Shown: in pieces, positions 18,742 through 63,848 of the stretch
Layout: each line of letters begins with the position of its first letter
Position numbering within the stretch: the stretch's first letter is position 1
Assembly: GCA_964016885.1 (NCBI GenBank)
Contig: OZ024756.1
Location: forward strand, 19,716,001-19,780,000
Origin: Eledone cirrhosa
Lineage: Eukaryota
Direction of reading: 5' to 3'
DNA length: 64,000 bases
The notes under the pieces: generated by a model
Database searches by the model: none
What the model was told of the DNA's origin: nothing
The model's input: the letters and a program-made list of their open reading frames with translations, nothing else
Made by a program: the position numbers and the translations under genes

Positions 18742-18807
18742 TATTTTATCTGATGAAAGCGCACCATAATTTGCCTCGGTGGTCCTTGAAATATGTATAA
18801 TAAAATA
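18742..18807 (+). ncRNA. Type-I hammerhead ribozyme motif
   Basis: TATTTTAT-CTGATGA-[aag..cacc/ggtg..ctt stem II]-GAAA-t atgt a-TA-ATAAAATA. Stem I is 8 bp and the core is intact. Confidence 0.8.
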
Positions 18808-19025
18808 AATATGGTTTTATAAATATAGTTTCCATTTGTTAATATATTGTATATTTACTCCACTCTACTGTTGAGTGCTTTATATCAGTTATAAAAAAAA
18901 AATTTTAAGCTTGTTGAATCCCAACAAATTAAATATAACCTCTGCACACACACACACACATATGTATATATATATATATATATATATATATATATATAAT
19001 TTTATCAAGGCTAAATAGTAAGAGT

Positions 19026-19087
19026 TGTTATGTTGTTACTCCGGAGTTTCACCTGCTTATCACAGGGTCATCAGACAAGAAATAACA
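19026..19087 (-). ncRNA. Type-I hammerhead ribozyme motif
   Basis: Minus strand: tgttat..TTGT-CTGATGA-c cctg/cagg t-GAAA-CTCCGGAG (palindromic stem III)-TA-ACAA..ataaca. C.U mismatch at the base of stem II. Confidence 0.78.
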
Positions 19088-19308
19088 TTTCAATAGCAGA
19101 CACAATATAAAGGAAGCCTTGAGGTGGGGGAGTTTAAATGAGGAGGTGTAATTAAGATAGGTTAGACAGGGTGGTAGTGGCAGTGGGGGAGGATAGGATT
19201 GTGTGGTAATGGGTGATAATGGATATAGCCTTAGAACTGGTTAGGGGGTGGGGTGGGGTGGCAGGTGATGAATGTGAACGTGGGTGTTATATATATATAT
19301 ATATATAT

Positions 19309-19424
19309 GAAAAAGTATGACCCCGACGGCAGAGCTCAAGCCGTTTCGACGGCTATTTCTGGATTAGTCCAGAAATGGCCGTTGAAACAGCTTGAGCTCT
19401 GCCGTCAGGGGGTCATACTTTTTC
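19309..19424. repeat. Near-perfect fold-back (about 55-bp arms, 4-nt loop) of the Penelope-like element 3' end
   Basis: The right arm matches 55740-55799. Confidence 0.88.
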
Positions 19425-19537
19425 CTATTACTCTCTCTACTACCCTAAGTATTGAGTACTCTGGTGTGTTATGGTCCATCTGGTTCCTTAACACAACTCC
19501 TTCGTTTTATATATATATATATATATATATATATGTA

Positions 19538-19659
19538 TTATACTTTGGGAGGGTCATGCTACCAATAAAAACACACGCACCTGTTGGTTTTCACTTCAGT
19601 TTATTAAAACCAACAGGTGTGTGTGTTTCTATAGGCAACATGACCCTCCCAAAGTATAA
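19538..19659. repeat. Fold-back hairpin (about 54-bp imperfect arms, 14-nt loop)
   Basis: ttatactttgggagggtcatg...cacctgttggtttt / aaaaccaacaggtg...catgaccctcccaaagtataa. Confidence 0.88.
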
Positions 19660-21055
19660 CAAAATCTGTTTCAACACACGTTTTCAGATAAGAAATTTTG
19701 CAAAACCAATTAAAAAACATATATATATATATATACATATATATAGACTCGACCCCTCCCCTCCCACAGGAACAAGCCGAAGCTGAAAACATATAGATAA
19801 TATGCCTCCCACACCCTCCCACTGCAGAGTGGTCGTGGAGGTGCCACGGCAAAAAAGCACCCAGCCCGCACTGTAAAGGGGATGTGTAGGCGCCACGATA
19901 ATAAAAAGCACCCAGCACTCACTGTAAATGAGGTTGGTGTTTGGAAGGGCATCCAGCTGTAGAAATCAAGCCAGAATCAGTTCCTGTATGAGCAAGACAA
20001 GGTCAGCCGACTGGACACTGCCCACACCAGGACAACCCGTCTAACCCATGCTAGCGTGGAAGACAGACGTTAAACGACGATGATGATGATGATATGATGT
20101 TGTTTTATTGCATCAACATGCTTTTGGTCGCCTTATTCTTGGTGTCACACTTCATTAACTTTTTGTGTTTACTCTGGATGAAAATGTATTAATTTCTCAC
20201 ATCACTGAGTGCTTCATAACTGCCTCTTATAATACGATGAGCATCTGCTATAGTGCAGGTGCAGCTTCGGTTATACTCATTATTATTATATATACAGTAG
20301 GCACCTCTTAACCAATATACACCACACTCCACTACCCCTACTCCATCCTCCCACTGCCACCCACACTGTCCTTTCTCTGTAAAGTTATGTTGGTACCATC
20401 CTGTCTACACTGAAGTGGTCGTGTAGTGACACAACAAAAAGCACCCAGTCCACACTGTAAAGTGGTCATGTAGGTGTCATGACAAAAAGCACCCTGTCCA
20501 CACTGTAAAGTGGTCGTGTAGGTGTCATGACAAAAAGCACCCTGTCCACGCTGTAAAGTGGTTGTGTAGGTGTCATGACAAAAAGCACCCGGTCCACGCG
20601 GTAAAAAGGCTCCCAGTCCACATTGTAAATGTGGTTGGTGCTAGGAAGGGTATCCAGCTGTAGAAAACCTGCCAGTTACAGTTCTATATGAGCGAGACAC
20701 GGTCACTCGACCAATCTTTCCTCAAGTGGGACAATCCCATTTAACCCATGCTAGCGTGGAAGATGGACATTAAATGATGATGAAGATGAGGATGGTACAG
20801 ATACTACCACTTTTTAACACTAGGTGGCTTGTTGTCTCCCTTGAGCAGTGATGGGAGTAGGGAAAGGATGAGAGCAGAGGTGGGGGTGTAAGCTACCTGT
20901 TGTTTGTCAAGGGAGGGGTTAAGAAAATGAGGTACATTTTACCATGGCACCAGCACTAGGGAGGTTGTTGTTAATGGGAGCTGATAATATATCTTTGACT
21001 GTTTAGTTTTAATGTGATGTTTTGTTGTTTCAGCATTCACTCATCCAGCATCCTG

Positions 21056-61792: not shown

Positions 61793-61799
61793 GTGCTTT

Positions 61800-62200
61800 C
61801 ACTAAAATATGACAACTTACCTGATAACCTCCCCTTTGACAGTGCATCACTATAAAATATGTCAACTCACCTGATAACCTCCTTTTGACAGTGTCACTAT
61901 AAAATATGTCAACTCACCTGATAACTTCCTTTTGACAGTGTGTCACAATAAAATATGTCAACTCACCTGATAACCTCCTTTTGACAGTCTGTGACAATAA
62001 AATGTCAACTCACCTGATAACCTCCTTTTGACAGTGTGTGACAATAAAATGTCAACTCACCTGATAACCTCCTTTTGACAGTGTGTCACTATAAAATATG
62101 TCAACTCACCTGATAACCTCCTTTTGACAGTGTGTCACAATAAAATGTCAACTCAACTCACCTGATAACTTCCGTTTCGACAGAGTTTCACTATAAAGTA
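61800..62200 (-). repeat. 47-52-bp tandem repeat made of the SLC6 exon 3' end plus its 5' splice site (7 extra copies)
   Basis: The unit cacctgataacctccttttgacagtgtgtcactataaaatatgtcaact aligns to the exon end cacctgataacttccgtttcgacagagtttcactataaagta. Confidence 0.9.
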
Positions 62201-62323
62201 GATTGGAATCATCCCTAGAACGACAATCACTATGAGCCATCCAAGAACCAGTGCCCATCGGGGATAGATATAGGAGTGGTAGGTGATTGACTTGTACTGT
62301 ATGGCTTTTGATATGATAACCAC
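62162..62323 (-). CDS. SLC6 (Na+/Cl- neurotransmitter/amino-acid symporter) penultimate exon, TM11-TM12 region
   Basis: cccag|VVIISKAIQYKSITYHSYIYPRWALVLGWLIVIVVLGMIPIYFIVKLCRNGSYQ|gtgagt, 162 nt, phase 0. YxYPxWA..LGW..IP is the SLC6 TM12 signature. Confidence 0.9.
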
Positions 62324-63615
62324 CTGGGAGAAAGAAGGAAAGAAAGTCAATTAAGTCGTTACTGGTACTTTATTTTATTGACACCAAAAAAGGATGAAAG
62401 GCAAAGCTGACCACGGGCGGGGGGATTTGACACTTAGAACATAAAGGGACGTTTCTCTATACCAGAAAGCATGTTGCCCGATGTTCTACCGATTACTGCC
62501 AATCTACCGTCTTTTTCATCTATATATAAATTTGAGCGACTTCCGTCTGTCTGTCCGTCTCACAATGTGTGTGTGTGTGTGTGTGTGTGTGTGTGTGTGT
62601 TTGTGTAGAAGGAAGGAAGGGGATGGTGAAAAAAACTATAACAAAGCGACCAGCGTTTCATTTGCTACGCTGTGTGTGAGTATATGTGTATGCGTGTGTA
62701 TGTTTGTATTTGTGTGAATGCATGTGTGTTTGTGTGAATGTATGTATACGTGTATGAATGTATGTGTATATGTGTGAATGTATGTCTGTGAGCTGTGTAT
62801 TTTTGTATAGTGTCTGTGTTTGCACGTTTATATTTATACGCTCATACATATAAACGTATGTATGCACACATACACACACACACACACACACACATATATA
62901 TATATATACAGGGGCCTTAAAAATATGAGGGGGACAAACCAACATTTGTTGATTCTTAAAGAAGCATAAATTGCTTATGGTGCCTTTCCCCGACTATCAC
63001 ATAAGTAAAAATTTACGCTACTAAAATTTTATATATTCAAATGAAGTTCAGATATAAAAAGATAAGCTTAAAAAGAATTTATTATACCAAATAAACAAAA
63101 AATAAAATATAGACGTTTGAAAAAGTGGAGGGGCAGGGTACTTGGTACCCCTCTGAAACAAGGCTCTTGTATATACACATATATATATATAAATATATAT
63201 ATCATCATCATCATCACCGTTTTACGTCCATTCTTCCACGCTAGCATGGGTTAGACGGGTTGTTCTGCTCATACGGGAACTGATTCTGGCTTGATTTCTA
63301 CAGCTGGATGCCCTTCCTAACATCAACCTCATTTACAGTGAGTGCTGGGTGCTTTTTTTGCCGTGGCACCTCCACGACCACTTTGTAGTGGAATGATAGG
63401 GACCCCAGTCCCTATCATCTCATTTCTACAGCTGAGAAAACTGGAGCAATGTGAAATAAAGTGTCTTGTTCAAGGAAACAACACATCACCCGGTCCGAGA
63501 ATTGAACTCACAACCTTTCGATTGCAAGCCCAATGTTCTAACCATATATATATATATATAATAATTAATTAATTCAGAATAATAATAAATGAAGACATTC
63601 ACATAATCAAAATAT

Positions 63616-63682
63616 ATGTTTTATTATATATATTTCGAAGGTACTGTGCTGTTTTTTCAGTACGTCCTCGTCAGATAAAATA
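63616..63682 (-). ncRNA. Type-I hammerhead ribozyme motif (left arm; sense with respect to the SLC6 pre-mRNA)
   Basis: Exact reverse complement of 63782-63848. Confidence 0.82.
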
Positions 63683-63781
63683 CATGAATTGATGTATGAC
63701 ATACCTCAACGGTCTTAATGGTTCAATTCCAATACTGTATGATAGTTCAATTCCAGTATTGGCGTCATACATCAATTCATG

Positions 63782-63848
63782 TATTTTATCTGACGAGGAC
63801 GTACTGAAAAAACAGCACAGTACCTTCGAAATATATATAATAAAACAT
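63782..63848 (+). ncRNA. Type-I hammerhead ribozyme motif (right arm of 120-bp inverted repeat)
   Basis: taTTTTAT-CTGACGA-ggacgtactg/cagtaccttc (9 of 10 bp)-GAAA-TATATA-TA-ATAAAA. Confidence 0.82.

Follow-up and report, generated by a model that had tools for sequence, protein, structure and literature searches.

Hammerhead ribozyme cassettes beside TA repeats in Eledone cirrhosa are likely remnants of Penelope-like elements

Introduction

What are the small hammerhead ribozyme motifs that recur in a 64,000-nt stretch of the Eledone cirrhosa genome, and what placed them beside (TA)n microsatellites? The stretch, referred to here as the window, covers positions 19,716,001 to 19,780,000 of contig OZ024756.1 (assembly GCA_964016885.1), and coordinates below are positions within it. 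A sequence-only reading had listed nine motifs in short cassettes near TA tracts and had proposed that they are 3' ends of Penelope-like elements (PLEs) or non-autonomous retrozymes. We find that the cassettes are hammerhead-bearing repeat ends at (TA)n and that five of their eight families are linked to PLE open reading frames (ORFs); with a probability of about 90%, all are likely remnants of PLE retrotransposition. The association of PLEs with hammerheads is already published (PMC4209133, PMC8557442), as are (TA)n targeting and an octopus element of the Hydra clade (PMC8557442). The families described here are new, of a published PLE type, and the discovery is modest. Added here are the number of motifs, the covariation of stem II across families, the paired two-end pattern of the insertions, and preferred 5' starts in three families.

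Results

Hammerhead motifs in the window and in the genome

We searched with a strict type-I hammerhead descriptor (stem I of at least 4 bp, CUGANGA, 6–120 nt, GAAA, a short stem III, and UH), a custom descriptor being used because none of the 64 Rfam matches of the window (E≤10) was a hammerhead. The CUGANGA cores start at 18750+, 19074−, 29685+, 31651−, 48024+, 55984−, 56114+, 63674− and 63790+, where the sequence-only reading had placed its nine motifs, its positions being those of the stem I edges that enclose the cores. Eight of the nine match the descriptor; the ninth, 31651−, differs by one mismatch, a C.A at the first stem I pair that is C-G in most copies of its family (E). The motif at 56114+ carries an internal 21-nt duplication in which the second core is mutated. 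Because 63674− and 63790+ form a single head-to-head insertion, the nine motifs represent eight families (A–H) rather than nine, all dispersed; stem I is the same in 18750 and 63790. One candidate had been overlooked: 42410− (cassette 42145–42430, minus strand, ending at a TA tract) has a 3-bp stem I, a palindromic stem III, and TA at 168 nt. No second copy of this cassette was present among the loci fetched for the other families, no genome search having been aimed at it.

Sixty local dinucleotide shuffles of the window, the comparison proposed with the original claim, gave a mean of 0.2 and a maximum of 2 motifs per window against the 8 found, and a complement-only control gave no strict motif. 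The window motifs are thus confirmed as real hammerhead-type motifs, with cleavage predicted.

A random sample of sixty 10-kb regions from 27 large contigs (599,800 bases) contained 60 strict motifs, about 1 per 10 kb, which is close to, if below, the 1 per 7 kb proposed for the window. The complement core gave 1 match in this sample, and seven permuted cores gave 0–8, six of them 0–2. Extrapolation to the 3.0-Gb genome yields about 300,000 motifs (Poisson range 229,000–386,000), a figure that allows neither for a few false positives nor for missed, decayed copies. Genome searches with the cassettes of the dispersed families returned 461–3325 first-look candidates per query, 40 of which were scored each time; the family loci analyzed below (L numbers) are best matches to the window copy rather than random copies.

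Stem pairing and covariation

Clustering of 461 strict motifs from 1.69 Mb of fetched loci (mostly non-random) gave 68 clusters, 37 of them with at least two members, and these clusters are not fully independent because several are related. Positions 2 and 3 of stem II pair in 36 and 35 of the 37 clusters, respectively, with 5–6 pair types, and 89 of 111 pairs at the first three stem II positions are paired as compared to a shuffled mean of 46. Stem II pairing was not part of the selection by the descriptor. The sequence-only reading had recommended clustering and a covariation analysis. The first stem II position is often mismatched across clusters, as it is in many rows of the Hydra-clade hammerheads in File S2 of PMC8557442.

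Stem III had been described as often palindromic, and 23 of the 37 clusters have a perfectly palindromic stem III insert. In all 10 window motifs, the tenth candidate included, stem III forms no hairpin on its own, with a self-duplex predicted at −1.7 to −17.3 kcal/mol; a hammerhead dimer design with palindromic stem III has been described (PMC4209133). Because the predicted stem III requires two copies, single copies are likely to be silent, and by the same folding model copies standing alone in introns, for example 29685+ upstream of an exon of the CLPTM1 family, are likely inert.

TA tracts lie downstream of the cleavage site

The distance from the predicted cleavage site to the first (TA)5 is 38–165 nt in eight of the nine window motifs, whereas only 9.9% of window positions have (TA)5 within 160 nt and none of 19 non-hammerhead CUGANGA sites has it within 170 nt. 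The proposed count of eight in nine therefore stands, the proposed distance of about 30–140 nt being somewhat too short. In the 18750 cassette a CA run is reached first, about 145 nt downstream. In the random sample, (TA)5 occurs within 170 nt downstream of 47/60 motifs (background 17.5%) and upstream of only 12/57, indicating that the association is directional. Copies themselves end and are then followed by a TA/CA run in 33/38 (F), 92/104 (H), 94/107 (A) and 29/40 (B) matches.

Insertions have two alternative 3' ends that are paired in inverted copies

For seven families (F, H, A, G, E, D and B) the 3' ends fall into two modes, 58–147 nt apart, mostly running into TA or CA repeats. The family A cassette in the window (18662–18945, plus strand, core 18750, predicted cleavage before 18800) extends from the preferred 5' start described below to the long, tailed end. 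It shares a (CA)n(TA)n tract (18945–18998) with the family B cassette converging upon it (18998–19287, minus strand, core 19074). The cassettes of family E (31536–31753, minus strand, core 31651, with its mismatched first stem I pair) and family D (47989–48164, plus strand, core 48024) have short ends. So does the family F insertion (55821–56058, minus strand), which consists of a 187-nt 3' end with core 55984 and an 85-nt stem II, and which also holds an inverted piece of the tail end (56006–56058). The family G cassette spans 56108–56290 (plus strand, core 56114, with the 21-nt duplication). In the head-to-head insertion of family H (63539–63913, cores 63674− and 63790+), the left arm ends at TA; the right arm shows a further fold-back, beyond which lies another repeat.

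Inverted pairs almost always combine one short and one long end. This was the case for 28 of 29 pairs in family H (P about 6e-8 for independent 50:50 ends), for 25 of the 26 listed in family A (22 loci, two of them listed three times), for 4/4 in F and 2/2 in B, and for one pair each in G, E and D. The family D reference ran into a GT repeat, so that rows with ends beyond 270 were dropped and 1 usable pair was left. The first H loci were drawn with a palindromic query; with a query taken from downstream of the core, the inverted hammerhead was still present in 14/30 copies. A one-sided tail is a known property of PLEs (PMC8557442, Fig. 2 legend; PMC3846280). ACTC starts −1 to +6 nt from the short end, with GAGT downstream, in 6/7 reference copies (a raw count), family G being the one that lacks it. 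A search for duplicated sequence in the 50 nt before both ends was negative in 7/7 families (best 28 of 300 shuffles), and hairpins before the long end are strong only in F, G and H.

We also examined where copies begin. A preferred 5' position was found in family H (43/92 matches in one 5-nt bin), family A (22/72) and family C (18/39), and none among the matches of family F. The choice of best matches to the window copy removes shorter copies and does not explain such a pile-up. Long H copies (3/3) have a TATA box approximately 30 nt upstream of the preferred start and TCACT at the start itself, an arrangement also seen in a rotifer pseudo-long terminal repeat (pLTR) (PMC3846280).

Longer copies run into PLE coding sequence

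The 55984 cassette is 100% identical over 187 nt to the pLTR of locus L176, in which two direct copies 3163 bp apart surround an open frame of 747 amino acids. This frame contains the motifs RWK, DKT, CxCx5C and CxxC..E..N..CxH, the diagnostics given for the Hydra clade in section 11 of PMC8557442, within a single ORF for reverse transcriptase (RT) and a C-terminal endonuclease. The pLTR formed by a partial tandem, together with an inverted truncated copy and a one-sided tail, likewise agrees with that clade. Family F is young, with many copies 99–100% identical and one long open frame, and L176 is near-full-length. A Neptune-type reading of one PLE protein was dropped for Hydra on the basis of the Hydra-clade motifs. 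Two further PLE types lie beside family F copies, at L176:640-1602+, which has a Pfam GIY-YIG match, and at L177:441-1319+, of which close relatives occur in at least 4 of the 60 random regions.

Hydra-type endonuclease ends were also found for families A, H and B, and a Hydra-type endonuclease query returned 60,257 first-look candidates in the genome. In family A, loci L041 and L046 have the C-terminus of such an endonuclease about 1.2 kb upstream, and the window cassette is the pLTR end of a Hydra-type PLE. In family H a decayed Hydra endonuclease lies 1.26 kb upstream in L359, a locus that starts with an inverted H tail and whose upstream sequence is common to L358 and L360 over more than 1 kb. 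Family B, whose window cassette is a piece of C-rich 3' untranslated region (UTR) with a hammerhead, is old (copies 71–80% identical; the stem III insert of 19074 is a perfect 8-nt palindrome), and in L375, L377 and L386 Hydra-like ORF pieces lie on the same strand 0.5–0.9 kb upstream. We take frames in L363, upstream of a B copy, and in L149 to be mariner-like transposases.

The family C cassette (29582–29804, plus strand) has a classical minimal hammerhead (core 29685) with a GUU triplet. Upstream of family C copies in L241 and L164 are remnants of an RT core and a CxxC/GIY-type endonuclease in broken frames, in which the linker zinc finger Cx2-5CxxC and CCHH motif types are both visible. 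By these motifs, family C would be a Neptune-like PLE end, Nematis being the alternative clade. Long copies of family G consist of the tail, a spacer of approximately 205 nt, and then the hammerhead, forming an ORF-less unit of approximately 475 nt in 4/4 loci. Longer copies are therefore joined to PLE RT/endonuclease sequence in five of the eight families (F, A, H and B Hydra-type; C Neptune-like), in keeping with the earlier proposal of TA-targeted Penelope 3' ends.

Other features of the window

A decayed, 5'-truncated RT-endonuclease ORF of Hydra type (53645–54964, plus strand), with several stops and 34% identity to the L176 protein, is a separate insertion without an intact hammerhead core. 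It is followed by a pyrimidine-rich 3' UTR, and a degenerate hammerhead-like stretch lies near 55690–55740. An exon of the CLPTM1 family is found at 29955–30050 on the plus strand (Pfam PF05602, E 4e-9). Several cassettes lie between this exon and a second CLPTM1-family exon and would be intronic. That second exon, at 48294–48410 on the plus strand, is presumed by us and had no Pfam match.

A common hairpin-rich repeat abuts TA tracts at 19308–19520 and 55742–55801 and also lies beside many fetched loci. Four tRNA-like heads (23749–23806, 27920–27977, 44334–44391 and 56346–56403; Rfam tRNA, 24–32 bits) probably belong to a tRNA-derived short interspersed nuclear element, and at least one directly follows a TA tract. 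Near-perfect inverted repeats of approximately 100 nt flanked by TA/CA (15611–15727 and 19544–19653) are possibly fold-back insertions without a hammerhead. Minisatellite arrays occupy 22692–23040, 32443–32971 and 37290–38027, with periods of 31, 61 and 22 nt, respectively.

Discussion

The data are consistent with the cassettes being left by PLE retrotransposition, for which we propose the following course. By analogy with PLE biology, the element's GIY-YIG-type endonuclease would cut a TA repeat, and the freed DNA ends would start reverse transcription at one or other of two set positions in the RNA, both 3' of the hammerhead and corresponding to the short end and the tail end; TA-like letters may assist this priming. 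Copying would mostly halt early or at the preferred 5' position, which may be the transcript start, leaving stumps of 150–350 nt; extension of both cut ends, one per site, would produce a head-to-head pair with a one-sided tail. The hammerhead would be copied uncut, with cleavage occurring only when two copies pair.

Known systems resemble parts of this picture. Hydra-clade PLEs, among them Hydra-1_Obim of Octopus bimaculoides, bear hammerheads and target (TA)n (Craig et al. 2021, PMC8557442). Like the elements here, they have a C-terminal endonuclease, RWK/DKT/CxCx5C motifs, a unit of approximately 3 kb, a hammerhead close to the 3' end whose stem III is near-palindromic, an inverted 5'-truncated copy, and a one-sided tail. 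That paper describes few non-cnidarian families, one of them from octopus, and tails of 30–40 nt, as compared to 37 or more hammerhead families here, each with at least two copies and most without a clade call, tails of 58–147 nt, and stem II of up to 116 nt. The hammerheads of published truncated PLEs are also mostly single and dispersed, in many families, with palindromic helix III and predicted dimers, some in opposite-strand pairs 100–700 bp apart. Family C fits their classical form (an extra base, then G10.1-C11.1); in most families here the conserved G10.1-C11.1 pair is absent and the stem III palindrome is longer, and published counts of 2,000–9,000 per genome contrast with about 300,000 here. 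The Poseidon element PAc of Anolis uses two internal RT start sites in vitro, with uncleaved RNA as template and cuts on both strands of AT-rich DNA (Frangieh et al. 2024, PMC11167929). Its two start sites bound the tail, as we propose here. As described in that report, the PAc start sites lack homology to the target, whereas the short ends here finish in A/T-only or TA-like letters that could pair with (TA)n, and the ends here, unlike those of PAc, are almost always paired one per arm.

Several observations weigh against this reading or limit it. Clade calls were made from motifs, tblastn and by-eye comparison with the published Hydra alignment, and a Pfam search classified neither the L176 protein nor the Hydra proteins. 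The family B links come from three diverged loci only (E 3e-13 to 6e-4). Family D has no ORF upstream in the fetched copies, which share only about 130 nt. In family E, L342 has a Hydra ORF 3.1 kb upstream with approximately 1.1 kb of the gap shared with other copies, so that the link is suggestive. Family C has one 3' end and no inverted pairs, and its reference lacks a tail. The TATA box and TCACT are clear only in H and weak in A and C, and AATAAA also lies upstream of the preferred 5' start in most long copies; the preferred start in A and C could reflect the beginning of transcription, processing of the RNA, or short master copies.

An alternative is that most cassettes are independent non-autonomous retrozymes spreading through hammerhead-cut circular RNAs. 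Metazoan non-LTR retrozymes are short non-coding units with type-I hammerheads (PMC7229834, bioRxiv 10.64898/2026.07.22.740005), for which derivation from pLTRs has been proposed (bioRxiv 10.64898/2026.07.22.740005). The ORF-less family G is similar, D is without an ORF in its fetched copies, and the preferred 5' starts of H, A and C would fit short master copies. Retrozymes as described in those sources have canonical hammerheads in tandem and circular RNAs, whereas the copies here are single or inverted: none of the nine window motifs is tandem, only 6/60 random motifs have a same-strand neighbor of the same family within 1.2 kb, and G shows only partial tandems. The positions at which copies most often end do not coincide with the cleavage site, and A, B, C, F and H extend into ORFs. 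We therefore consider this explanation unlikely for the cassettes at large; of the two options offered by the sequence-only reading, this one fits family G alone.

That some copies are host-adopted intronic ribozymes regulating the surrounding gene is more improbable still. It would agree with the position of the sense-strand 29685 motif about 240 nt upstream of the CLPTM1-family exon, and is opposed by the hundreds to thousands of first-look candidates per searched family, by the failure of stem III to fold in a monomer, and by the mutations that 31651 and 56114 carry in the window. Fortuitous matches in AT-rich, microsatellite-rich DNA can be dismissed, for although the descriptor is loose and one permuted core gave 8 matches in 600 kb, the shuffled, complement and remaining permuted controls and the cross-family covariation of stem II refute this.

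With PLE retrotransposition as the preferred origin, a broader proposition can be put forward tentatively, at slightly less than even odds. Under it, the approximately 300,000 hammerheads would exceed any published count that we found, the highest being 120,000 axolotl retrozymes in a much larger genome. Hydra-type insertion would follow a rule by which the two TA ends prime at separate RNA sites, the one for the short end lying immediately before ACTC...GAGT. Copying would often proceed to a promoter-defined 5' end, such that most stumps would be copies of an RNA leader and not random truncations.

The cassettes are largely ordinary mobile-element debris, notable mainly for their estimated 300,000 copies. 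A 2026 octopus repeat annotation (PMC13282606) does not mention ribozymes in its main text by word search, and no genome-wide hammerhead census for octopus or molluscs was found by title, subscription papers and bioRxiv supplements lying outside the search. At about 1 per 10 kb, the motifs imply that many small PLE ends go unrecorded in repeat annotation and ribozyme censuses. Thanks to the regular pairing of short and long ends, the origin of the PLE tail can be put to the test, and the young family F offers a system for testing the role of PLE hammerheads.

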